A stretch of 64,000 nt of DNA, from positions 7,829-71,828 of IMG/VR virus record IMGVR_UViG_3300045988_144346. One strand, given 5' to 3'. This document shows positions 503 to 64,000 of this stretch, one piece after another. The notes under the pieces are model-generated. The model was not told the DNA's origin, did not search any database, and saw only the letters and a program-made list of their open reading frames with translations. Within the stretch, counting starts at the first letter, position 1. Each line of letters begins with the position of its first letter. This stretch comes from a virus. The translations under genes were made by a program, and so were the position numbers.

Positions 503-507
503 CTCCG

Positions 508-35195: not shown

Positions 35196-35226
35196 TATAT
35201 GGCAAGCAGCGGCGCGTTTTGCAACC
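35196..35226 (-). promoter_or_regulatory. conserved promoter-like motif, copy g
   Basis: Minus strand GGTTGCAAAACGCGCCGCTGCTTGCCATATA. The ATG of the initiator gene is 49 nt downstream. Confidence 0.55.
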
Positions 35227-38999: not shown

Positions 39000-39420
39000 T
39001 GTTAAACTATCGGAGGATATAAATACCCTACCGCCATTCCAGACCGGAGCGCCGAAGCGAGCTGCTTCTTACGGGCTGCAGCTTATAGCAAAAAGGGAGA
39101 AGGACCCGCACCAAAAGGACGTGAAACCATGCGGCTGGCTGTATAGCGGTTTTAACCTCAGCAGTTCAGGAGGTATACAAAAGAGCCGGCAGGTGAAAGT
39201 TGACACTCCCCATGCCTAAAGGCAGGGGATTCTCGGTTCGCTGACCGTAGCCTGCACCGTGCGAGGTCTTACATGGTCTCCCCGAGCGTATAGGTTTGGG
39301 CGCGTCCCGCCCTACCGTAGGTATTACTTACGTCAGCAGGCGCAATCCTTCGCTTAGAATGTTTCTTGCAGCGTTGATGTCCCGGTCGTGTTGGGCACCG
39401 CATACGGGGCAAGTCCAACT
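39000..39420 (-). ncRNA. putative TnpB omega-RNA (reRNA) region
   Basis: Established TnpB biology places the guide-RNA scaffold across the tnpB 3' end and the right end of the IS. This stretch has many GC hairpins (e.g. CCCCTGCC-TTT-AGGCATGGGG) and no credible ORF. Confidence 0.35.
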
Positions 39421-40446
39421 GCGGACAGATAGGTTTTTTGTTCCGCTCCATTGAGTGCCGCATTCAGAGCAAAGCTGGCTGGATGGATAGAATCTGTCAA
39501 TCACCACAATCTTTTTCCCGTACCATTCTGCCTTATATTCCAGTTGTCTGCGGAACTCACCCCATGAAGCATCGCTGATAGATTTTGCCAGTTTGTGATT
39601 CTTCACCATGTTTCTCGGCGTTAGATCCTCAATGCAGATCACATCATTCTGCCGTACAAATTCCGTCGATAGCTTTTGAAGCGCGTCCTGCCGCTGATTG
39701 AAAATATGCTCATGCATCCGGGCGACTTTGATTCTTGCCTTTTCGTTCCGGTTGCTCCCCTTTGTTTTTCGGGAGAGCTGCCGTTGTAATTTGGCAAGTT
39801 TCTTTTCGCTCTTTGTAAGGAATTTGGGATTGGGGTACTCTTCGCCATCTGAGGTAACAGCAAAGGATTTCAGCCCCATGTCGATGCCGACCGCCGCCCC
39901 GGTAGAGGGCAGTGGCTCCATCTCCACATCGGTGCAACACAGGGCGACGAAGTATTTGCCACTTGGGGTCTGGCTAACGGTTGCGGACAGAATCCGTCCC
40001 TCTACAGGCTTGCTGATCCGGCATTTTACCCTACCCAGCTTGGGGAGCTGTACAGCACCGTCTAACACTTTGATGTTGCTTCCAACGCACTTGCTCTTAT
40101 AGCTTTGCCGGTGGTTTCGCTTGCTTTTGAATTTTGGGTATCCGGACTTCTCACCCTTTTTGACCCGCCGAAAGAAGTTCTGATAGGCTGTATCCAAATC
40201 CTGTAGAGAGGATTGCAGAGCAGTTGCGTCAACTTCCCGCAGCCAGATGGTTTCTTCCTGTTTCTTCAGAGATGTCAGGCCTTTGTCTTGCGTGAATCGT
40301 GTGGGAGCTCTTCCTGTTTCTCTGTACTGCTCCATTCGTTCAGCAAGAAAATGGTTGTATACGAAACGAACACAGCCGAACGTACATTGTATTAAAGTTT
40401 CCTGTTCCGCGTTCGGATATATCCGAAATTTATATGCACGTTCCAT
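39328..40446 (-). CDS. tnpB: RNA-guided endonuclease TnpB (OrfB_IS605 + Zn ribbon)
   Basis: [12 protein letters not shown] start, RuvC motifs GIDMGL / CIEDL / [11 protein letters not shown], zinc ribbon CSECG...CPVCG. Confidence 0.9.
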
Positions 40447-40488
40447 AGTGAACCCCACTGAATCTGCGTTTTAATTGTTCTTGGGCCG

Positions 40489-42930: not shown

Positions 42931-44145
42931 ATGCCTAAAAGCGGATCAAAAGAATATAAATATATCCGAAAATCGTTTGTTGCCGACGGGAAGCAATACA
43001 TAGTATGCGGAAAGACAGAAGCCGAGGCGATGGAAAAACTCGCCGCAAAGAAAGAAGCCGTCCGGCGCGCGGAATTAACAAAAGGTGTAAACTGCACAAT
43101 CGAGGATTGGGCCGATACATGGCTGACCACCTACATTAAACCAAAGGTCCGCAAACCTGGACAGCCGAAGAAAAAAGGCACCATGACGCAAAAAAGCTAT
43201 GAAATGTATGAGGACAAGATCAACGGATATATTATCCCGGCGCTTCGAGGTAAAAAGCTGCGCAGCGTCACCGACACGATGCTGCAAGGCGTGCTGAATC
43301 AGCAGGCGGAAATGTCTGAGTCCCACGCGAAAAAAGTACGAATGATCCTGCGTGCCATGTTCTCGCAGGCTGCCTTTTCTCGCATAATCCCCTTTGACCC
43401 GACCATCAAGCTTACCATTCCCGCGTCTGCTACTGCCGAAAAGCGCCGCTCGCTTACCGCCGAGGAGCGCGCCGTTCTTATGCAAGTGGCGAAGACGCAC
43501 CGGTGTAGCCTATGGATTCGTTTTCTCATGCGCACGGGCCTGCGCCCCGGCGAGTGCGCCGCACTTCGTGTGCGCCATCTGGACATGGAAACGCGGCTTA
43601 TTCACGTTTGCGAAGCCGTCGAGTCCGGAACCACTGTAATTGCGACGCCGAAAACGTCTGCCGGAGACCGGTATGTTCCTATCCCTTCGGACATTTATGC
43701 CGATCTGAAACGCCACATTAGCGGGAAAGACAAGGACGACTTTGTTTTCACGCAGGAAGACGGTAAATCCATGATGACGCAGACGGTGATGACAAACAAC
43801 TGGCGCAGTTTTTCCCGGCAGATGGACATCGCCATGGGCGCCGAAATGACAGCGCACGGCCATATCTACGACCCGAAAGACCTTGATAAGGACGGGAAAC
43901 CGTTGTATCCAGACAACGCCGGGAACCCGAAGAATGGTCACAAAATTGCTCCCGATCTTGTTCTGTATTGTCTGCGGCATACCTACGGTACAGATCTGCA
44001 GCGCGCCGGGGTGCCAATCAATATAGCAAAGGCGATCATGGGTCACAGCGATATTTCTGTGACAGCAAACGTATATACTGACGCAACTGTCGAAGATGCC
44101 ATGTCCGCGCGCGACTTAATGGACTCAGCAATAAAAACTACATGA
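42931..44145 (+). CDS. int: tyrosine integrase (phage integrase family, 404 aa)
   Basis: N-terminal SAM-like domain. RTGLRPGE, CLRHTYGTDLQRAGVPINIAKAIMGHSDISVTANVYTD (R..H..R..H..Y). Confidence 0.9.
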   Translation: MPKSGSKEYKYIRKSFVADGKQYIVCGKTEAEAMEKLAAKKEAVRRAELTKGVNCTIEDWADTWLTTYIKPKVRKPGQPKKKGTMTQKSYEMYEDKINGYIIPALRGKKLRSVTDTMLQGVLNQQAEMSESHAKKVRMILRAMFSQAAFSRIIPFDPTIKLTIPASATAEKRRSLTAEERAVLMQVAKTHRCSLWIRFLMRTGLRPGECAALRVRHLDMETRLIHVCEAVESGTTVIATPKTSAGDRYVPIPSDIYADLKRHISGKDKDDFVFTQEDGKSMMTQTVMTNNWRSFSRQMDIAMGAEMTAHGHIYDPKDLDKDGKPLYPDNAGNPKNGHKIAPDLVLYCLRHTYGTDLQRAGVPINIAKAIMGHSDISVTANVYTDATVEDAMSARDLMDSAIKTT

Positions 44146-44410: not shown

Positions 44411-44441
44411 AGAAGAGGGCGAAAATCGCCCCCTTTATTTT
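44411..44441. terminator. short bidirectional hairpin terminator after the sigma-factor gene
   Basis: GAGGGCG-AAAAT-CGCCCCC flanked by TTTATTTT (plus strand) and TTCTTTCT (minus strand). Confidence 0.5.
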
Positions 44442-44923
44442 AAAAATCTCTCGATTGTCTTTCTGGCGCGCCCAAGTTCCTGCGAAACGTACTGCGGCGT
44501 GCATCCAAGTGCGTCGCCAATATCATAAACAGACAGCTCAGCGCTGCGCATAGTAACCATAAGCCTTTGTGTAGGCGTAAGCCGCTTCATCATGTCTTCG
44601 AGCGCTGGGTGCTCGTCCTCCTTCCCGACAGTTTCCTCGACAAGTAATCGGCTATTCGGCGAAACGAAATCATCTAACGGCAGTGCCGCGATCTGCGGCT
44701 TGCAGCAATCTCGGATATATCGGCGCACCGCCATGAAAATGCCCTTGACCGCAAATGTTGAGAATTTAGCTCCTTTTTCCGGATAGTATTCCGCACACGC
44801 CTGCCATAGCCCTATCCTGCACACTTGTAGAACATCTTCGTCAACTTTAAGACTCGGGAAATACTTTTTCAAGGTAAACCAAACAAGCGACTGATTTTCT
44901 TCATACAGTTTCTCTGGCGTCAT
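44435..44923 (-). CDS. sigma-70-family RNA polymerase sigma factor (regions 2 and 4 only, 162 aa)
   Basis: Region 2-like VCRIGLWQACAEYYPEKGAKFSTFAVKGIFMAVRRYIRD. Region 4 HTH LSVYDIGDALGCTPQYVSQELGRARKTI. ATGA overlap with the upstream gene. Confidence 0.8.
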   Translation of the reverse strand: MTPEKLYEENQSLVWFTLKKYFPSLKVDEDVLQVCRIGLWQACAEYYPEKGAKFSTFAVKGIFMAVRRYIRDCCKPQIAALPLDDFVSPNSRLLVEETVGKEDEHPALEDMMKRLTPTQRLMVTMRSAELSVYDIGDALGCTPQYVSQELGRARKTIERFLK

Positions 44924-45495
44924 GTTTGAAGAGCCTCCACAAAACAATAGCTCTGCGGCGGTCTCGTGAGATTACACTGCGTACATTCTGAACACTTCGG
45001 CGTTGCCATGCCGAGATTGTCAAAGTAACATTCTCTGCTGTGTTTCTTGAACTCAGATATTTCTTTCGGCTTGTCGTAGATTTTCAGATCAGAGATATGC
45101 CAGCCAAACCCCGGGTTGCCGCCCAAATACGCATTGATCTCCTCCTCTGTTAAGCACGCCTCTTCGAGGAGCCGCCCGATTGGAGATTTCCAATCTCCGT
45201 TATTTGCAATTCGATATTCCGGTTCTCCGCCACGTCTGGTGAAGCCGACACGCGCCAGATGGTCAATTCGGTCGCACACCAACTCGCCAATAACTTTCCC
45301 GCCGCCATAAAAGCCTTGCTTTTCCACCAGCGCAAAGAAATCCTCGTGTTCAAATCGCGGCTTCGAGCAATAGACATACACCTTAAACGGCGTTTCCAAC
45401 TTCGGGCGTGTCTTGCGCACTTCCATCGTCTTTTCCCCGGCGGCAATCAGCTCGCACCAGCGCGGCTGGATGCTTAACATTACAGCTTTACTCAT
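44920..45495 (-). CDS. ASCH-domain (PUA-like) protein
   Basis: MLSIQPRWCELIAAGEKTMEVRK is a typical ASCH N-terminus. C-terminal Cys cluster. Confidence 0.65.
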   Translation of the reverse strand: MSKAVMLSIQPRWCELIAAGEKTMEVRKTRPKLETPFKVYVYCSKPRFEHEDFFALVEKQGFYGGGKVIGELVCDRIDHLARVGFTRRGGEPEYRIANNGDWKSPIGRLLEEACLTEEEINAYLGGNPGFGWHISDLKIYDKPKEISEFKKHSRECYFDNLGMATPKCSECTQCNLTRPPQSYCFVEALQT

Positions 45496-48102: not shown

Positions 48103-48650
48103 GGTTCGGCCTCCAAAACGAGTGTGTTGATATTGTCGGGAAGCTCTGCCCACAGTAGAACGTCCTCCACAAGGTACTCGAAGTCTTCTCCATCCCCATA
48201 GAAGCCGGGCGTCGCCTCTTCTTCCCAAGAGTTCACAAACGAACTCGCGTGGTAATACAACTGCTCGTAATAAACGTAGCCGCTTTTAAGCATAGATTCC
48301 TGCGCGCAGAGGCAGCGGCAGTCTTTGCCCGGAAGCCGATCTTTCACGCTCGTGAAGCGCAGTCCGGTACTGGCCCTTGCGAGCAATTCGTTAAAAGTCA
48401 TCCCGGAGGCAATAAGCTCGTCCTCGAACTTTTTGTATTCCAGCACGTCGGTCGGGGACATTGTAGTATCCTCGTACTCTTTCAGCCGTTCCCACACCTT
48501 GCGCTGGCTGCATGCGCCGTCCGGGCAGTATTTGCCCCAGCGCTCTTCGCGGCATTTGGCAATGTCGCAGAAGTTGCCATCGAAAGTAAGCCGACCGTAA
48601 GGAAGCTTTGTTTTATCCATTGGCTGGTTCGATTCCTCCTCGTTTTTCAT
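48099..48650 (-). CDS. DUF551-like protein (183 aa)
   Basis: FTSVKDRLPGKDCRCLC DUF551-type motif in the C-terminal half. Confidence 0.5.
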   Translation of the reverse strand: MKNEEESNQPMDKTKLPYGRLTFDGNFCDIAKCREERWGKYCPDGACSQRKVWERLKEYEDTTMSPTDVLEYKKFEDELIASGMTFNELLARASTGLRFTSVKDRLPGKDCRCLCAQESMLKSGYVYYEQLYYHASSFVNSWEEEATPGFYGDGEDFEYLVEDVLLWAELPDNINTLVLEAEP

Positions 48651-49083
48651 TTTTGCGGTAAATCACAACCATGCTCGGAAACGGCGCGCTGTTTGTTGCG
48701 TTTCCGAATTTCAACCGCCCACGCACAAAGCGGATTTCGGCTTTGCCGTAGATGAACTCGTGAAACCATCGTGTGTCCGTCCGAGCCGGAAGAAGCATAA
48801 CAATCGTGTTGCCGTTCTTTTCGTGCTCCTCCCACGCTTTCTGTACCCACTTTCCGATCTCGCGCCCGTAAGGGGGATTGCAGAACACCGTGTGGTCTCC
48901 CCACCGGCGGGTGAGTCCGTTCTGCTCTTTCGTGAAGAACGTCTCGCATTTGTGGTTCGCTTCATTCGCCGCCGGATCAAGAGTAAAGTGAAATTCGCCG
49001 TTCAGCTCATCAAAGAACGCCTGCGGCGTCGCCCATTCGTCAGTGGCGGAAGAAAACATCCCGCCAAACTGTTTATCTGTCAT
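48613..49083 (-). CDS. phage N6-adenine DNA methyltransferase (Dam/phage_N6A_met type)
   Basis: DEWATPQAFFDELNGEFHFTLDPAA, FCNPPYGREIGKW (NPPY), LLPARTDTRWFH. Confidence 0.8.
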   Translation of the reverse strand: MTDKQFGGMFSSATDEWATPQAFFDELNGEFHFTLDPAANEANHKCETFFTKEQNGLTRRWGDHTVFCNPPYGREIGKWVQKAWEEHEKNGNTIVMLLPARTDTRWFHEFIYGKAEIRFVRGRLKFGNATNSAPFPSMVVIYRKNEKRGGIEPANG

Positions 49084-49210
49084 CGGCATTACCTCCAAAA
49101 TGATGCTTTGTTACGGCGATGGCAAACGGCTCAATCTCCGCATCACCGATCCTTGTGATATCTCCTAAGTGTTTAATGAAAATCGCCTCTCTTTCAGAAT
49201 GCCATCAGCA

Positions 49211-49492: not shown

Positions 49493-49523
49493 TATATGGC
49501 AATCACAGCCTTAAATTGCAACC
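49493..49523 (-). promoter_or_regulatory. conserved promoter-like motif, copy h
   Basis: Minus strand GGTTGCAATTTAAGGCTGTGATTGCCATATA followed by GGGCAGGAGGTG. Confidence 0.5.
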
Positions 49524-52007: not shown

Positions 52008-52256
52008 GTGTTTTTATTGCCATTACCCAAAACGGGCAAGCGAACAGACGCGCAGCGCCGCGCCCGAAATAAATGGGATGCGGCGAATATGACAACATTA
52101 GGTTGCCGGATGCGCCGAGACGACGCCGAAAAATTCAAAGGCGCGTGTTATTCGGCAGGAACGACGCCGAACGCCGTTTTTACCGCGGCGGCGGCGGATT
52201 TTATGGAAAAAAACGCAAACAATAACAAAACGTCTGGAGGTGCTGAAAATGAGTAA
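52008..52256 (+). CDS. putative ribbon-helix-helix DNA-binding protein
   Basis: KTGKRTDAQRRARNKWDAANMTTLGCRMRRDDAEKFKGAC...TPNAVF resembles plasmid/phage RHH proteins. GTG 52008 or TTG 52017 start after GAGGGGG. Confidence 0.45.
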   Translation: MFLLPLPKTGKRTDAQRRARNKWDAANMTTLGCRMRRDDAEKFKGACYSAGTTPNAVFTAAAADFMEKNANNNKTSGGAENE

Positions 52257-52461
52257 CCGCGACATTGCGAAAACCTTAATTGACCAGATCCCGGAAACGC
52301 GGCTTTTTAACGTGATCCTCTTTTTACAGGGGGCCGCGCTTCCGGACGCGGAAACGCCGAACGCGGAAACAGCCGCCGCAATTGCCGAGCTTGCGAACGG
52401 CGGCGGGACACGCTTTAGCGGCGACACGTCGGCGCTTTTTGCGTCGATTCTGGAGGGCTGA
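52249..52461 (+). CDS. RelB/DinJ-type antitoxin (70 aa)
   Basis: GGAGG RBS. ETPNAETAAAIAELANGGGTRFSGDTSALFASIL is typical of antitoxins paired with YafQ/RelE toxins. Lies 4 nt upstream of the toxin. Confidence 0.6.
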   Translation: MSNRDIAKTLIDQIPETRLFNVILFLQGAALPDAETPNAETAAAIAELANGGGTRFSGDTSALFASILEG

Positions 52462-52465: not shown

Positions 52466-52735
52466 GTGCTGGAGATTGTCTATTCCTCCCGCTTTAAGCG
52501 CGACTTGCGGCAATGCGCCAAACGTCAATTAGATTTAACCAGACTGCAAACCGTCATTGACACACTGCGCACGCCCGCGGCGCTCCCGGCACAAAACCGG
52601 GATCACGATTTAACGGGGAATTATTCCGGTTTTCGGGAATGCCATGTTTCCCCGGATTGGTTGTTGATCTACCGCGTGGACGGTAACGCGCTGTTATTGG
52701 CCCGCACCGGATCGCATTCCGACTTGTTCAGCTGA
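52466..52735 (+). CDS. YafQ/RelE-family mRNA interferase toxin (89 aa, GTG start)
   Basis: YSSRFKRDLRQCAKRQLD, HDLTGNYSGFRECHVSPDWLLIYRVDGNALLLARTGSHSDLF (YafQ signature). Confidence 0.8.
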   Translation: MLEIVYSSRFKRDLRQCAKRQLDLTRLQTVIDTLRTPAALPAQNRDHDLTGNYSGFRECHVSPDWLLIYRVDGNALLLARTGSHSDLFS

Positions 52736-52764: not shown

Positions 52765-52796
52765 CCCCGGCGGTATCGTCCGCCGGGGATTTTTTG
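52765..52796 (+). terminator. rho-independent terminator
   Basis: CCCCGGCGG-TATCGT-CCGCCGGGG ATTTTTT. Confidence 0.8.
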
Positions 52797-53799: not shown

Positions 53800-54225
53800 A
53801 TGAAGATCACCCGTGAGAGCATCGAAAAGAGCAGCGCCCGCATGGGCAACGGCTGGACGCTCAGCCGTTACCATCTGGTCATGTGCGGCGAGAAAGCCGC
53901 CGAGCTGCAGATCCCCATGGAGGACGGCGGATACATCCAGGGCCGCATCTACATTGACAAAAAATGGAGAGGCTACCAGGCATATGACGGCGTGCGGATC
54001 AGCGTCAACGCCTCCCGCTACTACCCGGCGCAGACCCCCGGCGTTTATGTCTCCCACGGCCTCGGCCACTGGGTGGACATTGACCGCCCGGACATGAGTA
54101 AATGTATGTTTTCGGCGGTGGAGAAGATCACGCACAAGATCACCGCAGACGATATCCGCGCCCTGTGCGAAGCAGGCGCGGCAGCCCTGACCGAAAAAAT
54201 GGCGGAGCTCTCCGCCGCAGCGTAA
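53800..54225 (+). CDS. hypothetical protein (141 aa)
   Basis: AAAGGAGAAAG RBS; protein-like composition. Confidence 0.55.
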   Translation: MKITRESIEKSSARMGNGWTLSRYHLVMCGEKAAELQIPMEDGGYIQGRIYIDKKWRGYQAYDGVRISVNASRYYPAQTPGVYVSHGLGHWVDIDRPDMSKCMFSAVEKITHKITADDIRALCEAGAAALTEKMAELSAAA

Positions 54226-54742: not shown

Positions 54743-55966
54743 ATGACACAGAACAAAACCGAGTCCATCCGCTTCTACTACAACGGCCTGCGCGTCAACG
54801 GCGAGCGCAAGCTCACCCGCTGCTGCTATACCATGGATAACCGCCACGACGGCGCCGAGTGCGTCACGATCTACGCGACGGGCTACGACGACCTCCCGCG
54901 CGACATTTTCCCCGTAGAGAACAACAGCGACAGCTATACCGATTATTTCGAGAACGACAGCGCCACGCTTTTCCCCGATCATCCCCTCTATAAATTCGCC
55001 CGCTATGCGGCGATGAAGGCGAACACGCGCGGCAACGCCGAGAGCATCGAGCGCGTGAGCAAAGAGATCGCCGGCATGGGTCGCGAGCCGTGGGCCGGTT
55101 ATATCGACGCGCGCAAGGCCAACGTTGCCCGCTGGCAGCGGGAGATCGCCGACTTCAACGCCGCCGAAGATCCCGGCCAGCCGACCGCCGCCGACGTGGA
55201 AGCGTGCCACGCTCTCCGCCTTGCCGAAGAGAACGCCCGCCGCGAAAAAGAGCACGAGGAAGCGCTTCAGCGCCGGGAAAAGGCGCTGAACGAACAGAAC
55301 AACGGCCGCCGCTTCATCGAGCAGACCGCCGCCGAGCATCCCATCGAGGAGGGGCAGCCGGTCGTGCGCATCCATTGGAGCGAGCACCCCGCGTTCTACG
55401 GCTGGAAGGATGACGAGCTGGTGCTTTCCGTCGCCGCCGCCGAGATCGTTCTCAAGACGTTCGACGAGCAGAAGCGCGACGAAAACGGCGGATACTACAA
55501 GACAAAATTCTCCATCGAGGAGGACGGCGAACTCGTCTACGGCGGCGGGCGCTACGATCTCGGCGACGGGGACGGCGGCCTGTGCGAGCACATCCGCGCC
55601 TTTGGCCGTCACCTGATGGAGCGCGGGCAGTTCGGGCAGGGGGCAACGGAGGAGAACAAGCAGGAAGGCGCGAAGATCGTCGAATTTGCGAACCGTCTCC
55701 AGAGCTACACGCCCGGCGGCTATATTGAGAGCGTCGAGCCGGCGCCTTATATGAATGATGTATTGGAAACTCTGCAGAAAAAGAGAGAGGAAGAAGCCGA
55801 CAACCTTTCCGCGCTGATCCGTCTCCTGCCGGACGAGGGCATCATCGGCATGGCCTCCGACCTTGCCAAGAACGGCTCGCCGGAGACGGCGCGGTACGTC
55901 CTCCTGCAGCTTGCGCAGCGCGACAAGAAGAAGGCCGCCGAAGCCGCGCGAAGTCTCGGATTGTGA
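54743..55966 (+). CDS. hypothetical protein (407 aa)
   Basis: Strong RBS and protein-like composition. No motif I can name. Confidence 0.6.
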   Translation: MTQNKTESIRFYYNGLRVNGERKLTRCCYTMDNRHDGAECVTIYATGYDDLPRDIFPVENNSDSYTDYFENDSATLFPDHPLYKFARYAAMKANTRGNAESIERVSKEIAGMGREPWAGYIDARKANVARWQREIADFNAAEDPGQPTAADVEACHALRLAEENARREKEHEEALQRREKALNEQNNGRRFIEQTAAEHPIEEGQPVVRIHWSEHPAFYGWKDDELVLSVAAAEIVLKTFDEQKRDENGGYYKTKFSIEEDGELVYGGGRYDLGDGDGGLCEHIRAFGRHLMERGQFGQGATEENKQEGAKIVEFANRLQSYTPGGYIESVEPAPYMNDVLETLQKKREEEADNLSALIRLLPDEGIIGMASDLAKNGSPETARYVLLQLAQRDKKKAAEAARSLGL

Positions 55967-55988: not shown

Positions 55989-56019
55989 AGTTGCGAAACG
56001 GGCGGCTGCCCGCCATATA
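55989..56019 (+). promoter_or_regulatory. conserved promoter-like motif, copy e
   Basis: AGTTGCGAAACGGGCGGCTGCCCGCCATATA. Confidence 0.5.
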
Positions 56020-56063
56020 CAGCGTAAAGCCCCGCAAAGCGCGGGGCAGAAAGGGGAAAAAAC

Positions 56064-56783
56064 ATGACCGATACCGAACTTTTGGAGATGGCCGGAATTG
56101 CGATCCGGCACGGAGTGCTCAACGTTTACGGGGGGCGGAGCGACGCCGACACGCAGCGCCTGGTTGACAAAATGCTCAACGACCCCGCCGCGTATTACGC
56201 CGTACCGCCGCTGTATCCGGCGCTGCGCGTCTATGCCGAGCTCCGGGGGCGCGTGGCCGCGAAGTCCTGCGGCTCTGCCATTCAGGCGGCGAAGCGCATC
56301 ATCCGGACATGCGCCCGCAACGATATGCGCGGCGTGTGGAAAAGTGCCGACGGCTCCGCCTGGTGCTGCTGCGATGGGCAGCGGGAAGTCCGGCTGAAAA
56401 ATGTCTCCGGCGTTCCCGTGCTGGAACAGAGCTTTCCGAACCTCGAAGCGCAGATCGACGGCTGCGCCAAAGCGGCCAGCAAGTCGCTCCGGCTCCCTAC
56501 CGCCGCCGAACTCAAAACATACATTGCCGCCGAGAAAGCCGCCGGCGTCAAGCCGGATGCCCTTTGGTATTGGTGGGGCAGTGATACGCCGGCAGTGAAC
56601 GCCTCGTTCCTGCTGGACATGGTGACGATCTTCCCCGACTGCAAGGAAGCGCGGTATCGGACGGAGCTTTCCCCGCTTTACTTCTGCGGCGACAATGGCG
56701 ACGGTATTCTCCTGCCTGTTCGCAGAGCCAAATGCCCCGAATTTGAAAGCCGCTGGAACGAGCTGCACAAAAGCGCCGGTTAA
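56064..56783 (+). CDS. hypothetical protein (239 aa), first gene of a five-gene operon
   Basis: AAAGGGGAAAA RBS. Trp/Cys-containing globular sequence. Confidence 0.55.
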   Translation: MTDTELLEMAGIAIRHGVLNVYGGRSDADTQRLVDKMLNDPAAYYAVPPLYPALRVYAELRGRVAAKSCGSAIQAAKRIIRTCARNDMRGVWKSADGSAWCCCDGQREVRLKNVSGVPVLEQSFPNLEAQIDGCAKAASKSLRLPTAAELKTYIAAEKAAGVKPDALWYWWGSDTPAVNASFLLDMVTIFPDCKEARYRTELSPLYFCGDNGDGILLPVRRAKCPEFESRWNELHKSAG

Positions 56784-56854
56784 CCCCGGCGCTCCCCGCA
56801 AATATACATCATCAATATATACACAGGAAAATCTACACAGAAAGAGGCCGGAAC

Positions 56855-58762
56855 ATGGAACAGGAATTTCTCAGTCTGATCTTTCAGGAGGAAAAGCCGT
56901 ATAGAGGTGAGCGCCGTATAGGAATCTATAAAGGCAGCAAGAAAATCGGCGGCATCGAGCAGGTATATAATCTCTATCGCGGGACAACATATCACGCTTT
57001 TGCTAATCGCCCCTATACTTTCACGGTGCCAACCGCAAACTCTGTCGCTCAGGCAAAGCAGAACTTCGTCCGCGCGCTGAAAGAGCACGGCGGGAACGCG
57101 CCGACCAGCGCCGACATAAAAGACCTTCCCGCTGATCCTGACGCAGAATTTTATCCCACGCCGTCTTGGCTGGCCGGAAAGATGCTCGCCTGTCTCGACC
57201 GCAACGCTCCGATCCGCTCTGTTCTGGAACCGTCCGCCGGGAAAGGCGATCTGCTGTATGCCTTGCAGAAATACAACGCCGCCCAGCGTTACGGCAAAGA
57301 CGAAGACATTTTCGAGCTGGCCGACGTGATCGAAGCAGACCAAAATCTGCGGGTGCTTTTAAAGGGTGCCGGTTTCCGTGTCATCGGCGACGACTTCCTG
57401 CAATTCCACACGCACAAACATTACGACCTGATCCTCATGAACCCGCCGTTCTCCAACGGCGATGCACACCTTCTCCGAGCACTGGACATTCAATCCGGCG
57501 GCGGGCAGGTCCTCTGTCTTCTCAACGCGGAAACGCTGAAAAATCCATATACAAACCGCCGCAAAGCCCTGCTCCAGAAGCTGGAAGAGTACCACGCCCA
57601 TGTGGAATATGTGCAGGGCGCTTTCCAGAAAGCCGCCAGAAAATCCGACGTGGAAGTTGCCATTGTCTATGTCAACATACCCGTTCCGGTCATGCACTCG
57701 AACATCATAGATTATCTGAAACGCGCTGAAAGCGCCGCAGAAATAGAGCCGGGAGAAGCCTCTTCCATTGCCTCTGCGAACTGGATGGAAAACCTTATTA
57801 ACGGCTATGAATTTGAAGCGAAAGCCGGTATTGCTCTCCTGCGAGAATACGCTGCCATGCGTCCATATTTGATGGACGGACATACGAACTATGAGAAGCC
57901 GCTGATATCCATAAGCGTCGGAGACCGTGAAATGGAGGAAAGCGTTCCTGCTGACAGCGTTAACCGGTATCTGGAAAAACTGCGGTACAAATACTGGAAC
58001 GCATTTCTTTCCCGCGAAGAAATGACAAGCCGCATGACTTCCTCCATGAGCAAGCAGTACAGCGAAAAGATCAGCGACCTGAAGCACTACGATTTCAATC
58101 TATACAACCTGCAACAGGTATTCTTTGATATCCGTGCGCAGCTCTCCGGCAATGTAGAGGAAAGCATTCTCGATCTTTTTGAAACACTCTCCGGAAAGTA
58201 CGCGTGGATCAGGGAAGAAAACAACAAGAACATCCACTACTTTAACGGCTGGGCAACAAACAAAGCGCACAAGGTGGGGATGAAAGCCATTTTGCCGATC
58301 AATGGGTTTGGCTCCGCATGGTTGGGGAAAGACCGTGGCCTTGATTCTTATTACATCAGCACGCAGCTTTCCGATCTGGAGCGCGCCATGAACTATCTTG
58401 ACCGGGGAGAAACTACCAAACGGAAAAATCTGCAGAGTTTCATCGACTACGCAGTCAAGTGCGGCAATACCGTCGTGGAAACCACCTATTTCAAAGCAAA
58501 ATTCTATAAGAAAGGCACTTGCCATATTCAGTTTCGCCCGGAAGCACAGCGCATCATCGACCGACTGAATATCTTTGCCGCGCAGAAGAAAAACTGGCTG
58601 CCGCCCTGCTACGGCAGGAAGCGCTACAAAGACATGACACCGGAAGAGGCCGCCGTCATTGATGATTTTCAGGGCGAGGATGCCTACGAAAAACTCATGG
58701 AGAACCCCGGACTATACCTCACGGATGCAACGTCCAGCGATTTTCTTTCGCTCCCTGCATAA
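56855..58762 (+). CDS. N6-adenine-type DNA methyltransferase with DUF4942-like C-terminal domain (635 aa)
   Basis: SAM motif VLEPSAGKGDLL, catalytic LILMNPPFSNGD (NPPF). The long C-terminal region is typical of DUF4942 methylases. Confidence 0.7.
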   Translation: MEQEFLSLIFQEEKPYRGERRIGIYKGSKKIGGIEQVYNLYRGTTYHAFANRPYTFTVPTANSVAQAKQNFVRALKEHGGNAPTSADIKDLPADPDAEFYPTPSWLAGKMLACLDRNAPIRSVLEPSAGKGDLLYALQKYNAAQRYGKDEDIFELADVIEADQNLRVLLKGAGFRVIGDDFLQFHTHKHYDLILMNPPFSNGDAHLLRALDIQSGGGQVLCLLNAETLKNPYTNRRKALLQKLEEYHAHVEYVQGAFQKAARKSDVEVAIVYVNIPVPVMHSNIIDYLKRAESAAEIEPGEASSIASANWMENLINGYEFEAKAGIALLREYAAMRPYLMDGHTNYEKPLISISVGDREMEESVPADSVNRYLEKLRYKYWNAFLSREEMTSRMTSSMSKQYSEKISDLKHYDFNLYNLQQVFFDIRAQLSGNVEESILDLFETLSGKYAWIREENNKNIHYFNGWATNKAHKVGMKAILPINGFGSAWLGKDRGLDSYYISTQLSDLERAMNYLDRGETTKRKNLQSFIDYAVKCGNTVVETTYFKAKFYKKGTCHIQFRPEAQRIIDRLNIFAAQKKNWLPPCYGRKRYKDMTPEEAAVIDDFQGEDAYEKLMENPGLYLTDATSSDFLSLPA

Positions 58763-58838
58763 AACCCTGTCCACCCGGTTAATTCCTATTACACATGACA
58801 TAGCAAGTGTAAGACAAAGACCGCAAAGGAGGCGGAAA

Positions 58839-59801
58839 ATGAAAACAGAACCCATCGACATCATTATCCCCGCGCATAATTGCGCCGACACCATCGGCGA
58901 CACCATCAAAAGCCTTGACCTGCAGCTGTGCAAAGACTTCAAGGCGACCGTCGTGATCGACGGCGCGGACGAAAAGCTGGAAGCCGTCGTAGAGACCGCC
59001 GCAGACTCTCGCCCGTGGCTCCGCTGCATGAAAAGCAACGAAAACAAAGGCGCCGGCGCAGCGCGGAACCTCGGAATGCTGGCGTCCGCTTCCGAGTGGC
59101 TGATGTTCCTCGACGCGGACGACCTTCTGCTCCCCCACGCTATCGCCACCATGCAGCAGGCGATACCGGGAAGGCCGGACTTTGTTATCGGCAAAACCAT
59201 GCGCGAGAGCGAGCGCGGCTGCTACGAAGTCGTCGGGCGCGAACAGCTCACCTGGCTGCACGGGCGAATGTACAACTGCGGCTTTCTGACCGCACACGAC
59301 ATCACATTTCCCAACGATCTGCGCATGAGCGAAGACCTGGCGTTTAATATGAAATGCGCAGAATTGGCGAAGGGCGTTCCGGAAACCTCTTGGCCGGTAC
59401 ATATCCAGCGCTGGAACGGAAAGTCTCTCTCACGGCGTTCCGGGGCGTCCAGAGAGCAGGCGAGGACATATATCAAGGCATGCCTGGACTATGCCGTGAA
59501 CTGCGTCCACGCAGAGCGCGAGCCGGAAGACCTGCGCCTTCTCCCCGACGCTCTCGCCGCCTGTTATTACTACTTGGATGCAGTAGAAAGATTGTTTCCG
59601 AATGACCATGAACTCTACGCAGAAATGTGCCGGGACTTTATCAAACTCGCGCAGACGGTAGAGCTTCCGCGTCTCCGCACGCTCCCCGCATGGGAAGCCC
59701 GGCTTGCCCATTCCCTCGCGCTGCCCTCGCGCCCCTACGGCACGGTGTACATGCCGGAGCTGACCTTTGAGCAGCGTTTCATCAATGCGACCCTAAAATA
59801 A
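58839..59801 (+). CDS. family-2 (GT-A) glycosyltransferase (320 aa)
   Basis: IDIIIPAHNCADTIGDTIKSL, NKGAGAARNLG, DxD motif FLDADDLL. Confidence 0.8.
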   Translation: MKTEPIDIIIPAHNCADTIGDTIKSLDLQLCKDFKATVVIDGADEKLEAVVETAADSRPWLRCMKSNENKGAGAARNLGMLASASEWLMFLDADDLLLPHAIATMQQAIPGRPDFVIGKTMRESERGCYEVVGREQLTWLHGRMYNCGFLTAHDITFPNDLRMSEDLAFNMKCAELAKGVPETSWPVHIQRWNGKSLSRRSGASREQARTYIKACLDYAVNCVHAEREPEDLRLLPDALAACYYYLDAVERLFPNDHELYAEMCRDFIKLAQTVELPRLRTLPAWEARLAHSLALPSRPYGTVYMPELTFEQRFINATLK

Positions 59802-59822
59802 ATATACAGGAGGAACCCACCA

Positions 59823-60053
59823 ATGCGAGCACCCTGCATCATCAAAAGAACCACAGACCGGCACGACGGATTGACCGTCGAGTATCTGGAAACGTCGGTC
59901 CCCAAAGCGAAGTATACCGGAGACAAAACCCGCGCCCGTGTGTTCGTCTACACCGGAGACGCCGAGTATATCGTCCGCACACAGCTTCGCAACGGGGCAA
60001 AGTCGTCGCAAAGCTTCACCGTCGTCACGCTCAAGGAGGGCAAAAGAAAATGA
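59823..60053 (+). CDS. hypothetical protein (76 aa)
   Basis: AGGAGGA RBS. ATGA overlap with the next gene. Confidence 0.5.
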   Translation: MRAPCIIKRTTDRHDGLTVEYLETSVPKAKYTGDKTRARVFVYTGDAEYIVRTQLRNGAKSSQSFTVVTLKEGKRK

Positions 60054-60301
60054 GTACAAAAGCAGTAAGACTTCTTCTCATGTTCCTGTTCGGTCAGGTC
60101 GTTCAGACGGCTGTGATGCTCATCGGCTTTGCGCTGGATATGAACTCGATCATCTGGTGGACCGTCGTTTCCGGTCTTGTGATCTTCTGCGCCGCGTGGC
60201 TCGGCGGGTGCATCGCCGCTCCCGAGGCCGTCCGCTCCAAGCGCCACGCAAAGCCCTCCGGGGGCTCTCCGATGGACGCCGCCTCAAAATATCTCGACTG
60301 A
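60050..60301 (+). CDS. small two-TM membrane protein (83 aa)
   Basis: TM segments LLLMFLFGQVVQTAVMLIGFAL and WWTVVSGLVIFCAAWLGGCIAA. Confidence 0.55.
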   Translation: MSTKAVRLLLMFLFGQVVQTAVMLIGFALDMNSIIWWTVVSGLVIFCAAWLGGCIAAPEAVRSKRHAKPSGGSPMDAASKYLD

Positions 60302-60307: not shown

Positions 60308-60336
60308 TTGCGCGCAGCGCGCAGCTAATCTATAAT
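60308..60336 (+). promoter_or_regulatory. sigma-A-type promoter
   Basis: TTGCGC, 17 nt, TATAAT (perfect -10). Confidence 0.55.
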
Positions 60337-60352
60337 ATTCACAAACAACATA

Positions 60353-60396
60353 AAAATCTGCAAACAACTTTGCGAAAATCTGCAAACAAATTTGCG
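60353..60396 (+). repeat. two tandem 22-bp repeats (candidate operator) between promoter and start codon
   Basis: AAAATCTGCAAACAACTTTGCG / AAAATCTGCAAACAAATTTGCG (one mismatch). Each contains TGCAAA..TTTGCG dyad symmetry. Confidence 0.75.
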
Positions 60397-60416: not shown

Positions 60417-60701
60417 ATGTCTGAATCCAACGCCAATTATTCCATCAACGAGCCCCGCTTCCAGCGCGTCATCAAGTACGCAACGTCCGCCTCCAAGCAG
60501 ATCCCCGGCGCGCTCGTGCGCGTAGCGGAGAGCGAAGAAACAGACCTCAACACCGTCCGTCTGACTCTCCCCATCCCGTCCGAGATCAACAAGATCGCCG
60601 TCCATTACCTCCACAACGCCGGATTCTCCGCCGACAAGACCGAACTAACCCAGGACGGCTTTACCTTTACCGTAGACATGACGCAGCCCTACGAAGACTG
60701 A
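60417..60701 (+). CDS. hypothetical protein (94 aa)
   Basis: GAAAGGAAA RBS; followed by a GC hairpin. Confidence 0.55.
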   Translation: MSESNANYSINEPRFQRVIKYATSASKQIPGALVRVAESEETDLNTVRLTLPIPSEINKIAVHYLHNAGFSADKTELTQDGFTFTVDMTQPYED

Positions 60702-60893: not shown

Positions 60894-61070
60894 GTGTCTC
60901 CCAAAATAGGGCGTCCCAAGAAAGACGTTACCAAGAGCGTCGAAATCGGCCTGCGACTTACAAAAGAAACAGCAGACAAGCTGCAACGCTGCGCCGACGA
61001 AATGGAAACGACAAGAACCGCCGTAATAGAGCGCGGTATTGATCTTGTGGAAGCCGAGTTAAAAAAATAG
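60894..61070 (+). CDS. ribbon-helix-helix (CopG/Arc-like) protein, 58 aa, GTG start
   Basis: SPKIGRPKKDVTKSVEIGLRLTKETADKLQRCADEMETTRTAVIERGIDLV has the beta-strand-helix-helix pattern. Below the track size cutoff. Confidence 0.55.
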   Translation: MSPKIGRPKKDVTKSVEIGLRLTKETADKLQRCADEMETTRTAVIERGIDLVEAELKK

Positions 61071-62221: not shown

Positions 62222-62245
62222 TTCCAAAAATTCCATAAAACAGCA

Positions 62246-62286
62246 ATGCGCAAAGATTCATTTGAGTCTTTGCGCATTTTTTATTT
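62246..62286 (+). terminator. rho-independent terminator
   Basis: ATGCGCAAAGA-loop-TCTTTGCGCAT TTTTTTATTT. Confidence 0.8.
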
Positions 62287-62433: not shown

Positions 62434-62724
62434 ATGGATAACACTCTGGAACGCGCGCGAGACATTGCCATCCGATTCGGGCAGCTGACATGGGGCGATC
62501 TCATTGACCTTTCCCCGAGAGAGGAGCACGCGGTAATGGCCGCGCTTCGGATGTCTGCGATCATGCCGGGAGGGAAAGACCGGGTAACTTCAGTGCAGTG
62601 CTTCTTGTTTTTGAACGATGACCGGAACGACCGTGGCCCGGAGGACGAGGAATTGCAAAAACACATCCGCCAGTTTCTTCAGCTGGTGGCGGGCTTTATG
62701 GGATGGTACGGGCATGGAGAATAA
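62434..62724 (+). CDS. hypothetical protein (96 aa)
   Basis: AAGGAG RBS. Start MDNTLERARD. Overlaps the methylase start. Confidence 0.5.
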   Translation: MDNTLERARDIAIRFGQLTWGDLIDLSPREEHAVMAALRMSAIMPGGKDRVTSVQCFLFLNDDRNDRGPEDEELQKHIRQFLQLVAGFMGWYGHGE

Positions 62725-63454
62725 GGAGCTTTTATTTTTCGGTGACTGCATGGCAAAGCTAAAGGAGCTTCCCGCCGGAAGCGTGGATATGGTGCTGGCG
62801 GATCCTCCCTACGGCACGACGCGCTGCAAATGGGACAGCCCCATACCATTCGCCCCGCTCTGGGACGAGCTGCACCGGGTCGTGAAAAAAGACGGCGCCA
62901 TTCTCCTCTTCGGCGGTGAGCCGTTTGGAAGCGCTCTGCGCCTCTCGAACCCGAAGGAATACCGGTACGACTGGGTGTGGCAGAAAACGTCTCCTACCGG
63001 CTTTCTGAACGCCAAACGGCAGCCGCTGCGGGATGTGGAAAACATTGCGGTGTTTTATCGCTCTCCCCCGCTCTATATCCCGCAGAAGACATCCGGCCAT
63101 ACCCGAAAGGTGAGCTCGGCGTACAGCAAGCGGAACTGTCGAAAAGGGGAGGCCTACGGCGCCTATGGCGCTACGTCCTACGACAGCACCGAGCGCTACC
63201 CGACACAGGTGCTCCGCTTCAAAAGCGACAAGCAGCTGGCAGCGTTTCACCCGACGCAGAAGCCCGTGGCCCTGCTCGAATATCTTATAAAAACATACAC
63301 ACGCCCAAATGATACGGTGCTGGATTTCTGCATGGGCAGTGGGTCAACCGGCGTAGCCGCTCTCCGAACCGGCCGAAAATTCATCGGGATAGAGCTCTCG
63401 GCAGAATACTACGCCGTAGCCACCAGGCGCATCACCGGGGAAATCACCGGATAA
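62714..63454 (+). CDS. beta-class N6/N4 DNA methyltransferase (246 aa)
   Basis: Catalytic VLADPPYG (DPPY) precedes the SAM motif VLDFCMGSGSTGVAA. Also HPTQKPVALLEYLI. Confidence 0.85.
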   Translation: MENKELLFFGDCMAKLKELPAGSVDMVLADPPYGTTRCKWDSPIPFAPLWDELHRVVKKDGAILLFGGEPFGSALRLSNPKEYRYDWVWQKTSPTGFLNAKRQPLRDVENIAVFYRSPPLYIPQKTSGHTRKVSSAYSKRNCRKGEAYGAYGATSYDSTERYPTQVLRFKSDKQLAAFHPTQKPVALLEYLIKTYTRPNDTVLDFCMGSGSTGVAALRTGRKFIGIELSAEYYAVATRRITGEITG

Positions 63455-63785: not shown

Positions 63786-64000
63786 CGCGGGAGGCTTTCC
63801 TCCATACGGATTTTGACGGCTCCGGCTACGGCTCCGGCAACGGCGACGGAGGCTCTGGCTCCGGCTACGGCGACGGCTACGGCGACGGAGGCTCTGGCTC
63901 CGGCTACGGCTCCGGCAACGGCGACGGAGGCTCTGGCTCCGGCTACGGCGACGGCTACGGCGACGGAGGCTCTGGCTCCGGCGACGGCTACGGCTACGGC
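63773..64000 (+). CDS. Gly/Ser/Tyr/Asp tandem-repeat protein, 3' end outside window
   Basis: The ATG overlaps the upstream 3' end. MEVLTREAFLHTDFD, then (GSGYGSGNGDGGS GSGYGDGYGDGGS)x2... Open to the window edge. Confidence 0.5.
   Translation, partial: MEVLTREAFLHTDFDGSGYGSGNGDGGSGSGYGDGYGDGGSGSGYGSGNGDGGSGSGYGDGYGDGGSGSGDGYGYG
63818..64000 (+). repeat. perfect 78-nt (2 x 39 nt) coding tandem repeat
   Basis: Units 63818-63856 and 63857-63895 are repeated exactly at 63896-63973, and the repeat continues to the window edge. Confidence 0.85.

Follow-up and report, generated by a model that had tools for sequence, protein, structure and literature searches.

Five plus-strand genes in a 64,000-nucleotide stretch of viral DNA (the window) very probably form a mosaic of phage accessory genes, each exchangeable independently of the rest, and not a new multi-gene system. 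The whole account that we propose, which takes in the phage setting, a shared promoter-like element, independent cassettes and the roles assigned to the genes, seems to us a little better than an even chance. A sequence-only reading of the same DNA had joined the five genes into an integrated system; its individual annotations stood up to analysis, but the integrated system did not.

Gene layout and transcription signals

All five open reading frames listed in the sequence-only reading were recovered: gene 1 (56064–56783, 239 aa), a methylase with a DUF4942 domain (56855–58762, 635 aa), a glycosyltransferase (GT; 58839–59801, 320 aa counted from its ATG), gene 4 (59823–60053, 76 aa) and gene 5 (60050–60301, 83 aa). 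Each is preceded by a Shine–Dalgarno-like sequence. For the four genes that align without gaps (gene 1, the GT, gene 4 and gene 5), dN/dS against relatives was 0 to 0.51, and these genes are evidently under purifying selection. The methylase alignments are gapped; that it too is a gene follows from the conservation of its catalytic motifs and from the size of its family. Judged by these sequence criteria, all five are genuine genes. The last two overlap by ATGA, as had been noted (gene 4 stop TGA at 60051–60053, gene 5 ATG at 60050–60052), and are predicted to be translationally coupled.

The motif that had been placed ahead of gene 1 (copy e, 55989–56028, plus strand; an A/T-rich stretch, TTGCGA, 17 nt and CATATA) is real. 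Nine matches to the pattern GTTGCNA-N10-T-N4-GNCATAT lie in the window, where chance predicts 0.07; none of the shuffled sequences contained that many. Every copy lies 5′ of, and co-oriented with, an open reading frame start and follows an A/T-rich stretch, and copy e is kept in close relatives. The motif is presumably a promoter. A GC-rich hairpin in the 5′ leader (56029–56047, plus strand; GCCCCGC-AAAGC-GCGGGGC in the centroid structure) was ruled out as an intrinsic terminator, as it has no T-run. Within the unit, the scan returned three weak terminator-like sites with 5–6-bp stems, all inside coding sequence, and folding of the inter-gene spacers was unremarkable (z of −2.2 and −2.0). The earlier claims of co-orientation behind a common promoter-like motif and of no internal terminator were thus borne out, and the five genes are probably transcribed together.

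The 3′ boundary of the unit is not set by any signal in the sequence, which makes its 3′ end, as drawn, arbitrary. The spacer after gene 5 (60308–60396, plus strand) holds TTGCGC-17-TATAAT at 60308–60336 and two 22-nt direct repeats at 60353–60396, each with a GCAAA-N4-TTTGC palindrome; this arrangement looks like an operator ahead of a 94-aa gene (60417–60701). No terminator was found in this spacer (folding z −0.75), and transcription therefore probably runs past the fifth gene. The first strong intrinsic terminator 3′ of copy e is at 62245–62278 (plus strand; 15-bp stem and T-run, z −5.96), with the next motif copy directly after it at 62294, and transcription that reads through probably stops there at the latest.

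The five genes are not co-conserved

The proposal of one system turned on the five genes being co-conserved, and a survey of gene neighbourhoods showed that they are not. A phage 93–94% identical to this one (L005) lacks the methylase, GT homologues at 35–50% identity occur without any of the four partners, and methylase homologues at ~50% identity lacked the GT in all three cases examined (L110, L113 and Lelie). Family sizes lie orders of magnitude apart (about 35 clusters for the GT, at least 2,841 for the methylase and at least 1,411 for gene 1), and the partner to which gene 1 is tied, an LPD25-domain protein, lies outside the proposed unit. It is highly likely, from these comparisons, that the five genes are not one interdependent system.

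A single system of interdependent parts, acting either as a surface-glycan exclusion unit or as a two-layer modification unit, would fit the co-orientation, tight spacing, common promoter-like motif and lack of an internal terminator. It would also fit the gene order, which is kept in all close relatives of the phage backbone, with amino acid identities in L021 and L022 of 65–86% for gene 1, the GT and gene 4 and 81% for gene 5. This conservation, however, is confined to one backbone in which everything is syntenic, and one member of that backbone does without the methylase. Outside it each gene is found without the others, gene 1 pairs with LPD25 beyond the unit, and the 3′ end is arbitrary. 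The survey appears to have largely refuted such a system already, and we consider it very improbable.

The methylase carries motif I (EPSAGKG, within VLEPSAGKGDL) and motif IV (NPPF, within LILMNPPFS) intact, and its earlier assignment to the DUF4942 type was upheld (Pfam DUF4942, E 3e-30; MTS weakly matched). An N-terminal SAM-dependent amino-methyltransferase core is joined to a C-terminal DUF4942 part that is probably the target-recognition region. The protein matches PADLOC models for type II and for orphan methyltransferases and has its methyltransferase domain in common with giant polyvalent proteins (PHROGs); no nuclease partner was detected nearby. It is best read as an orphan N6-adenine-type DNA methyltransferase, whose methylation target we infer. 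The gene is missing exactly from L005, as a gene-sized presence/absence cassette, and by that comparison it is dispensable. It shares with other orphan phage and mobile-element methyltransferases, methyltransferase domains of polyvalent proteins among them (Iyer et al. 2017, PMC5512222), a SAM-dependent amino-methyltransferase make-up, the lack of a cognate nuclease and a place next to an LPD-domain protein among early or establishment genes; unlike the LPD36–methyltransferase–helicase (DarB-type) arrangement described in that paper, it stands alone with a C-terminal DUF4942. Two further methylases are present in the window, Dam at 48613–49098 and an N6_N4 methylase at 62714–63454.

Gene 1 had no match in Pfam, PHROG, NCBIfam or PADLOC, and its family of representative clusters (counted at E ≤ 1e-3) identifies it, by homology, as a member of a large uncharacterised mobile-element protein family. 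Its predicted architecture is an N-terminal helical region and an α/β domain (AF2 pLDDT 79). All 50 best PDB fold matches of the model were DnaN clamps (E 3e-3 to 2.5e-2, TM 0.26–0.44), which weakly suggests a β-sliding-clamp-like fold for the α/β domain; at the sequence level no link to DnaN was found. Immediately 5′ of the five-gene unit, behind its own motif copy (c), lies the LPD25 gene (54743–55966, plus strand; 407 aa, Pfam LPD25 E 3e-17). Because two fusion proteins (P0311 and P0398) join LPD25 to a gene 1-like domain and the two homologues are syntenic in L110, the LPD25 protein is a likely functional partner of gene 1. Fusion and synteny thus tie gene 1 to LPD25 and not to the GT.

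The products of genes 4 and 5 were found only in this phage backbone. Gene 4 encodes a basic, soluble protein (dN/dS 0.10–0.26) with no family match in Pfam, PHROG, NCBIfam or PADLOC. Gene 5, also without a family match, has the two transmembrane segments previously attributed to it (hydrophobic at ~7–29 and 34–57; Kyte–Doolittle 19-residue maxima 2.0–2.2) and is predicted to be a two-transmembrane hairpin protein with a basic C-terminal tail. Its dN/dS is 0–0.20, with 100% amino acid identity in L006 and L007.

The GT, judged by its distribution, is an autonomous single-gene cassette. Its ~35 clusters (34 at >40% identity, one at 35%) are all on phage-like contigs, and relatives beyond them drop to generic GT2. 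It occurs alone in six other lineages (L015/L116, L017, L019, L106 and L108), and in four of these its homologues lie 0.5–1.2 kb from the integrase gene, separated from it by no more than three small genes. Its dS is 0.36–0.38 versus 0.05–0.12 for genes 1, 4 and 5 in L007 and genes 4 and 5 in L006 (gene 1 in L006, 0.22); by these rates the GT allele has been swapped independently of its flanks.

The glycosyltransferase and its acceptor

The GT is a soluble inverting-type GT-A (GT2) enzyme. The DxD motif reported earlier as LDADD is present (MFLDADDLL; PF00535, E 4e-21), D41, D92-x-D94-D95, H141-G-R143 and D166 are invariant in the family, and E165 is nearly so. Hydropathy analysis gave no transmembrane segment, and no lipid-binding segment was evident. 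The AF2 model (pLDDT 91.5) has a helical C-terminal subdomain, and its best solved-structure matches, along the whole length, are TarP (Foldseek E 1e-14, TM 0.63, about 333 columns, 17–18% identity), TarS(1–349) and RmlT. At the sequence level the likeness to these enzymes is confined to the GT2 core, and the profile alignment passes through the ED motif with TarS and RmlT only.

TarP is the Staphylococcus aureus prophage-encoded poly-ribitol-phosphate β-1,3-GlcNAc transferase, and TarS and RmlT are its relatives. The GT resembles it as a phage-borne, soluble GT-A/GT2 enzyme of ~320 aa with DxD and ED catalytic motifs, for which TarP is the best whole-length structural match and which acts without dedicated partner genes. 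It differs in its low identity, in its presumed host, a gut Clostridia-type bacterium, and in its own position, which is within an early-type operon and 15 kb away from the integrase. Family members in other phages lie near an integrase gene, as does tarP, whose integrase-proximal position is conserved (PMC9650247); with the structure search, they lend weight to the TarP analogy drawn earlier. The conserved catalytic residues, the lack of a transmembrane segment and of Gtr-type partners, the whole-length TarP/TarS/RmlT match and the integrase-proximal homologues point to a host wall polymer as the acceptor, a reading to which we give close to an even chance. A solitary mobile cassette also fits an enzyme that needs host substrates only.

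GtrABC of Shigella and Salmonella phages brings about serotype conversion, with a GT2 enzyme encoded at the attP/integrase end and a surface glycan change that excludes superinfecting phages. The GT is likewise a phage GT2 enzyme and has weak GtrB-like PHROGs matches; GtrB, in contrast, carries transmembrane helices at its C terminus and works only together with the GtrA flippase and a GT-C enzyme. Neither GtrA nor a GT-C enzyme was found here, and the sole membrane protein is the gene 5 hairpin. gtrABC has been named as a P22 exclusion system (PMC10883804).

The likeness to TarP is not specific, since TarP is also the best PDB match of verified phage 5hmC DNA GT-A glycosyltransferases, which are CAZy GT2, inverting and nearest TarP and JGT (bioRxiv 10.1101/2023.12.21.572611). 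Were the GT to glycosylate phage DNA, it and the methylase, perhaps joined by the clamp-like gene 1, would form a layered anti-restriction island of DNA modification, and mined GTs do often lie beside methyltransferases and clamps (bioRxiv 10.1101/2023.12.21.572611). The GT adjoins a DNA methylase in a window that also holds Dam and the N6_N4 methylase, and it lies ~15 kb from the integrase, surrounded by genes of DNA metabolism and anti-restriction. Several lineages have, within a few genes of the GT, either a DNA methylase or a protein annotated as Lar-like (restriction alleviation): an N6_N4 methylase in L017 and L106, a Lar-like protein in L015, and a weak C5-methylase match with a dCMP deaminase in L116. 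The verified enzymes, however, cluster with a C5-cytosine methylase and a TET-like dioxygenase (5mYOX), or with ThyS, and neither the window open reading frames scanned nor the precomputed Pfam annotation of the 10 kb downstream yielded a 5mYOX/TET, a ThyS-like hydroxymethylase or a C5-methylase. They are also shorter (GT57, 272 aa; bioRxiv 10.1101/2023.12.21.572611) and fit the TarP catalytic core only, at E about 1e-5, compared with ~330 columns at E 1e-14 for the GT. Moreover, the GT travels as a solitary gene, often beside an integrase, and the methylase is dispensable in L005. The neighbouring methylase, of the amino-methylating NPPF type, makes no hydroxyl acceptor. Because N6-methyladenine has no hydroxyl available for glycosylation and no acceptor-generating enzyme was found among those sought, the two-layer DNA modification suggested earlier is weak, and glycosylation of phage DNA seems decidedly unlikely.

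It is rather unlikely that the acceptor is instead a membrane glycolipid, the anchor of lipoteichoic acid, a protein of host or phage, or some small molecule. Among cellular proteins the nearest homologues (25–32% identity) are encoded as GT2 genes in tandem in MAGs of Bacilli, Tenericutes and Clostridia; one such pair adjoins a diacylglycerol-kinase-like gene, a hint of glycolipid synthesis, and SunS, a prophage-derived peptide glycosyltransferase, is among the distant PDB matches. These likenesses are nevertheless weak and do not extend beyond the generic GT2 core; generic GT2 patterns also seeded the genome scan for cellular homologues. The whole-length fold matches point instead to TarP, TarS and RmlT, the GT is without an evident lipid-binding or transmembrane segment, and its surroundings showed neither a cognate peptide nor a neighbourhood of structural genes.

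Proposed roles in the phage

We propose that the region is the accessory early arm of a ~70-kb temperate phage of gut Clostridia, the host being taken as Gram-positive on the strength of the CHAP and CW_7 domains in the endolysin. The five genes would have a common promoter-like element and yet be functionally independent and individually exchangeable. Gene 1 and the LPD25 protein may belong to the establishment or counter-defence proteins of mobile elements, and the methylase would most likely methylate the phage genome, which would then escape host restriction. The coupled pair of gene 4 and two-transmembrane gene 5 could possibly serve membrane-level exclusion. T4 Imm is a small two-transmembrane immunity protein that blocks DNA injection; gene 5 may be compared with it by analogy, as a small (~83 aa) two-transmembrane phage membrane protein of an early region, with no sequence similarity to be expected.

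The GT would be self-sufficient, most likely drawing on a host nucleotide-sugar and decorating, on the cytoplasmic side, a cell-envelope polymer that is already in place, either a polyol-phosphate or a polysaccharide, in the manner of TarP, TarS and RmlT. The phage has a sigma factor gene of its own, so the motif-driven promoter may be lytic-phase, which would count against classical lysogenic conversion. If the wall-polymer reading is true, the GT would alter the receptor and antigen surface of the host, and may thereby bring about superinfection exclusion, spare progeny from adsorption to debris, or lead to lysogenic conversion.

Gene layout and phage context

Five plus-strand ORFs occupy 56064–56783 (gene 1), 56855–58762 (a 635-aa DUF4942 methylase), 58839–59801 (a 320-aa GT2 glycosyltransferase, GT), 59823–60053 (gene 4) and 60050–60301 (gene 5), exactly where the sequence-only reading had placed them. 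The 4-nt ATGA overlap of genes 4 and 5, the EPSAGKG and NPPF motifs of the 635-aa protein, the LDADD motif of the 320-aa protein and the two transmembrane segments of gene 5, two clear hydrophobic helices beside a basic tail, were likewise confirmed. The intergenic spacers before this overlap measure, in order, 71, 76 and 21 nt, and a Shine–Dalgarno-like sequence precedes each of the five genes. Comparison with relatives gave dN/dS values of 0 to 0.51 for gene 1, GT, gene 4 and gene 5 (the methylase was left out because its alignments were gapped), so that the ORFs of 76 and 83 aa, too, count as genuine genes. Genes 1, 4 and 5 had no match in Pfam, PHROGs, NCBIfam or PADLOC.

As a whole, the window appears to represent a single temperate phage. 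An endolysin with CHAP and CW_7 domains (3741–4478, minus strand) points to a Gram-positive host, and the window also encodes a tape measure protein (10738–14964, minus strand), DnaB, RecT, YqaJ, Dam, a Bro-N antirepressor, an N6_N4 methylase and a tyrosine integrase (42931–44145, plus strand). An IS605-family TnpB (OrfB_IS605 plus a Cas12f1-like TNB domain; 39328–40458, minus strand) is inserted in the stretch that separates the recombination genes from the integrase region. The rightward early arm starts with a ParE/YafQ-type toxin gene (52466–52735, plus strand), which is preceded by a 70-aa candidate antitoxin (52249–52461, plus strand) and followed by a terminator (52765–52788). A 141-aa early protein (53800–54225, plus strand) has a weak PADLOC ‘E2’ match (E = 4e-5), and a ubiquitin-conjugating-like fold in such a protein could act as an anti-defence decoy. 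At 63818–64000 (plus strand), the ORF after the DUF6948 gene contains a tandem repeat with a 39-nt period that encodes a Gly/Ser/Tyr/Asp-rich low-complexity segment (GSGYGSGNGDGGS...) and continues beyond the window end. Neither a tRNA nor an Rfam family was detected in the window.

The identical GT protein is present on human-gut metagenome contigs of 70–74 kb with differing end points. No closely related cultured phage was found in the phage collection: megablast of 24 kb of the window returned no match, and a distant search of phages yielded no more than weak similarity to the methylase, in an unannotated phage and in Faecalibacterium phage Lelie, the latter with all neighbours of the methylase-like gene annotated ‘hypothetical’.

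A repeated promoter-like motif and the transcription unit

The motif copy ahead of gene 1, from which the five genes were proposed to be expressed, belongs to a real family, as GTTGCNA-N10-T-N4-GNCATAT occurs nine times in the window versus 0.07 copies expected by chance. These copies start at 776, 15026, 52805, 53727, 54685, 55990 and 62295 on the plus strand and span 35197–35225 and 49494–49522 on the minus strand. Each follows an A/T-rich stretch and is followed within 30–75 nt by a ribosome-binding site (RBS) and a start codon. The phage-wide consensus is an A/T-rich stretch, GGTTGCRA, 17 nt and CATATARRG. The architecture (TTGCRA, 17 nt, CATATA) appears promoter-like; it fails a strict sigma-70 consensus scan. 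An ECF-like sigma factor (Sigma70_r2 plus r4_2; 44435–44947, minus strand) may read the motif, an idea that stays speculative because the GT-bearing relatives L015 and L116, which carry sigma homologues at 31–33% identity, lack the repeated motif at these loci.

Two of the copies, those at 776 and 54685, have a near-identical 5′ leader and RBS in common as well (CATATAAAGCATAAAGCAAAAGGAGGTCAC), which indicates that promoter-leader cassettes were duplicated whole. Given their location behind a motif copy, a second tyrosine-recombinase-like gene (834–1793, plus strand) and a class-V aminotransferase or cysteine-desulfurase-like gene (1814–2872, plus strand) are probably phage genes. In two relatives (L106 and L110), Aminotran_5 is paired with a PAPS-reductase-like gene, reminiscent of DndA/DndC-type DNA sulfur modification.

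As to the claimed absence of an internal terminator, only weak terminator-like hairpins were found inside the unit, within coding sequence, and the spacers between the genes fold unremarkably. The five genes are plausibly co-transcribed. Judged from sequence, such a unit has no set 3′ boundary, because the spacer after gene 5 contains no terminator (z = −0.75) and the first strong intrinsic terminator lies at 62245–62278 (z = −5.96). The spacer after gene 5 does hold a TTGCGC-17-TATAAT element. Between its TATAAT box and a 94-aa gene, two tandem 22-nt repeats (AAAATCTGCAAACAAMTTTGCG; 60353–60396), each with a GCAAA-N4-TTTGC palindrome, probably serve as the operator of a small DNA-binding protein. 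A 58-aa RHH-like ORF at 60894–61070 is a candidate for that protein.

A mosaic of accessory genes

The sequence-only reading had proposed an undescribed five-gene system, to be given up if the genes were not co-conserved in other genomes. Gene neighbourhoods show that they are not, leaving the proposal unsupported: there is a methylase-minus variant, there are solitary GTs and methylases without a GT, gene 1 is linked to LPD25, and the GT allele has been swapped. First, in a close syntenic relative (L005/L011, IMGVR_UViG_3300045988_170557) the flanking genes are 93–94% identical and the methylase is precisely absent; the missing segment begins near the methylase start codon and ends ~20 nt ahead of the GT start (56850–58820 in the window). 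Such variation in methylase content is consistent with an accessory gene that is dispensable and host-dependent. Second, six other lineages with a GT of 35–50% identity carry it without gene 1, the DUF4942 methylase, gene 4 or gene 5. Dedicated GT partners in these distant lineages were considered and rejected, as the small ORFs beside the GT homologues are unrelated to genes 4 and 5 and none is a membrane protein. Third, no GT was found near the methylase homologues in the examples inspected (L110, L113/L114 and Lelie). Last, the GT genes of three relatives (L006, L007 and L009) differ from the window GT (58839–59801) with a dS of 0.36–0.38, well above the 0.05–0.12 measured for genes 1, 4 and 5 in L007 and for genes 4 and 5 in L006 (dS of gene 1 in L006, 0.22), indicating that the GT allele was replaced independently of its flanks.

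Gene 1 represents a very large uncharacterised family, linked by fusion to LPD25, whose members fall into at least 1,411 clusters at 50% identity. Two of its members (P0311 and P0398) are fusions of a gene 1-like domain with LPD25, and the related locus L110 carries an LPD25 gene, a gene 1 homologue (profile E = 2e-43) and the methylase in synteny, without a GT; other homologues reside in unrelated phage contexts. The fusions and the L110 synteny point to the upstream LPD25 protein (54743–55966) as the natural partner of gene 1, and this partner falls outside the proposed unit. All 50 of the 50 best PDB folds for the gene 1 model (pLDDT 79) are DnaN beta sliding clamps, matched weakly (E = 3e-3 to 2.5e-2, TM 0.26–0.44). 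A single-sequence search and two profile searches of PDB sequences with gene 1 returned only noise and no DnaN, and the protein, at 239 aa, is too short for the three domains of a DnaN protomer. The fold is thus described only tentatively as clamp-like. The gene 1 domain is a candidate for a new domain among the establishment proteins of mobile elements. Genes 4 and 5, a translationally coupled pair, are restricted to this phage and its close syntenic relatives, and a role for them in membrane-level exclusion is a guess.

The 635-aa protein contains DUF4942 (PF13708; residues 374–579, E = 3e-30, 105.7 bits against a cut-off of 25) and a weak methyltransferase match in Pfam. Its SAM-binding motif I (EPSAGKG) lies ahead of catalytic motif IV (NPPF), the amino-methyltransferase signature, and it matches both the MTase_II and oMTase (type II, orphan) models of PADLOC and PHROG families annotated ‘DNA methyltransferase’, among them the methyltransferase domains that belong to giant polyvalent proteins. 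No nuclease domain was detected in the adjoining genes with Pfam, NCBIfam or PADLOC. The protein is predicted to be an orphan amino-methyltransferase, probably specific for N6-adenine, with DUF4942 as a likely target-recognition module, and most likely it would shield phage DNA from restriction. The family comprises at least 2,841 clusters, hundreds of them at about 50% identity on phage-sized contigs, and PF13708 is present in all homologues among the matches listed. A PDB sequence search gave no match, and the DUF4942 literature yielded nothing informative. Together, these results show that the five genes are a mosaic of independently mobile accessory genes; what remains is a phage methylase of the orphan type and a phage glycosyltransferase resembling TarP, both of known kinds.

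The glycosyltransferase and its acceptor

The GT contains a Glycos_transf_2 domain (PF00535; Pfam, E = 4e-21). Across 26 family members, D41, D92-x-D94-D95 and D166 are invariant and E165 nearly so, and the nucleotide-binding Asp, the DxD metal/diphosphate site and the ED-type catalytic base of a Rossmann-like GT-A fold are all present. A PDB fold search with the AF2 model (pLDDT 91.5) gave 402 matches at E ≤ 1e-3, the best 50 of the 402 all being GT-A-type glycosyltransferases. The top folds are the wall-teichoic-acid glycosyltransferases TarP, TarS(1–349) and Listeria RmlT (E = 1e-14 to 1e-12, TM 0.62–0.67), and their alignments span the whole length (320–350 columns), including the subdomain after the GT-A core. 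Sequence identity to these enzymes is 17–19%, below the level of orthology. By phmmer and profile search, TarP-type enzymes match only residues ~3–177, with chondroitin synthase and the N-terminal domain of TagF ranking above them; of their profile alignments, those to TarS and RmlT alone extend as far as the ED motif. Among viral structures, the best-matching folds belong to uncharacterised gut-phage GTs.

The GT family comprises ~35 clusters, of which 34 exceed 40% identity and one stands at 35%; most are full-length, and beyond them there is an abrupt drop to generic GT2 matches. A genome-collection scan recovered one true member, on a 5-kb MAG contig; the remaining cellular matches are generic GT2s at 22–40% identity (most 25–32%). 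Transfer of function from the tandem-GT2 chromosomal context of cellular homologues was rejected, as these are too distant.

In four lineages (L015, L116, L017 and L019), GT homologues lie 0.5–1.2 kb from an integrase gene, and no more than three small genes intervene. In L015 the GT operon and the integrase are set apart by a bidirectional terminator and a non-coding gap, where attP is expected. This placement is similar to that of gtr loci, which are also found near the integrase. GtrABC, however, combines a membrane-anchored GtrB, a GtrA flippase and a polytopic GT-C, whereas the GT described here has no transmembrane segment (maximum KD19 0.98). Its neighbours contain no GtrA or GT-C domain (Pfam, PHROGs), and a three-component Gtr-type model was rejected for these reasons. 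GtrB-like PHROG matches of the GT are weak (E = 2e-7) and N-terminal only. The tarP gene has a conserved position close to the integrase (PMC9650247), which the four lineages mirror; the window GT differs from them, lying ~15 kb from its integrase (42931–44145). Since the GT travels as a single gene, it must rely on a donor and an acceptor supplied by the host, and this mode of travel is easier to reconcile with decoration of an existing envelope polymer, as by TarP, than with pathways dependent on partner enzymes. We propose that the GT would decorate such a polymer with the host donor, in the manner of the TarP-type enzymes, trimers that use a nucleotide-sugar to glycosylate poly(ribitol-phosphate) or a related wall polymer.

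Verified phage 5hmC DNA glycosyltransferases with a GT-A fold are also GT2 enzymes with TarP as their best PDB match (bioRxiv 10.1101/2023.12.21.572611), so TarP-likeness alone does not distinguish an envelope acceptor from DNA. We nevertheless consider it unlikely that the GT acts in DNA hypermodification. In favour of such a role, the GT is repeatedly found near DNA methylases or Lar-like genes in relatives, and in L116 the strand opposite the GT carries, ~5 kb away (175–3602, minus strand), a PAPS-reductase-like gene, a gene for a dCMP deaminase and a weak match to a C5-cytosine methylase. This L116 neighbourhood, which has no TET-like gene on record, is the only hint of a cytosine-modification context. 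Against it, genes for the verified enzymes are clustered either with ThyS or with both a C5-methylase and a TET-like dioxygenase (bioRxiv 10.1101/2023.12.21.572611), but no C5-MT, 5mYOX/TET or ThyS-like enzyme was found among ~50 window ORFs (Pfam; small ORFs partly covered) or in the Pfam annotation of contig L001, which covers 10 kb downstream, and the adjacent methylase is of the NPPF type. The verified enzymes are, moreover, smaller, and their match to TarP is confined to its core (E about 1e-5; bioRxiv 10.1101/2023.12.21.572611). They combine R...DDD...ED(Y/F) motifs with a TarP/JGT-like structure; by this published description, the GT has R76, D92/D94/D95 and E165-D166-L, with TarP as its top match, and such features are common to GT2 enzymes generally. 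It is very improbable that the GT family is nucleic-acid-directed without the known 5hmC/5hmU pathways, perhaps aided by gene 1/LPD25 and layered with adenine methylation; if true, this would be a new kind of anti-restriction DNA modification in phages of gut Clostridia. A more modest version of this improbable reading would make the gene 1–LPD25 pair a new establishment factor by which mobile elements mimic a clamp.

That a plausible-looking new system turned out to be a mosaic calls for caution in operon-based system discovery in phages. The near-identical methylase-plus and methylase-minus phages (the window and L005/L011) form a natural isogenic pair for methylome and restriction-escape work. 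The TarP-like GTs form a small, phage-restricted family in temperate phages of gut Clostridia, often located near the integrase, that is a candidate for phage-driven remodelling of surface glycans in abundant gut commensals, and hence of how these are infected by phages and recognised by the immune system.
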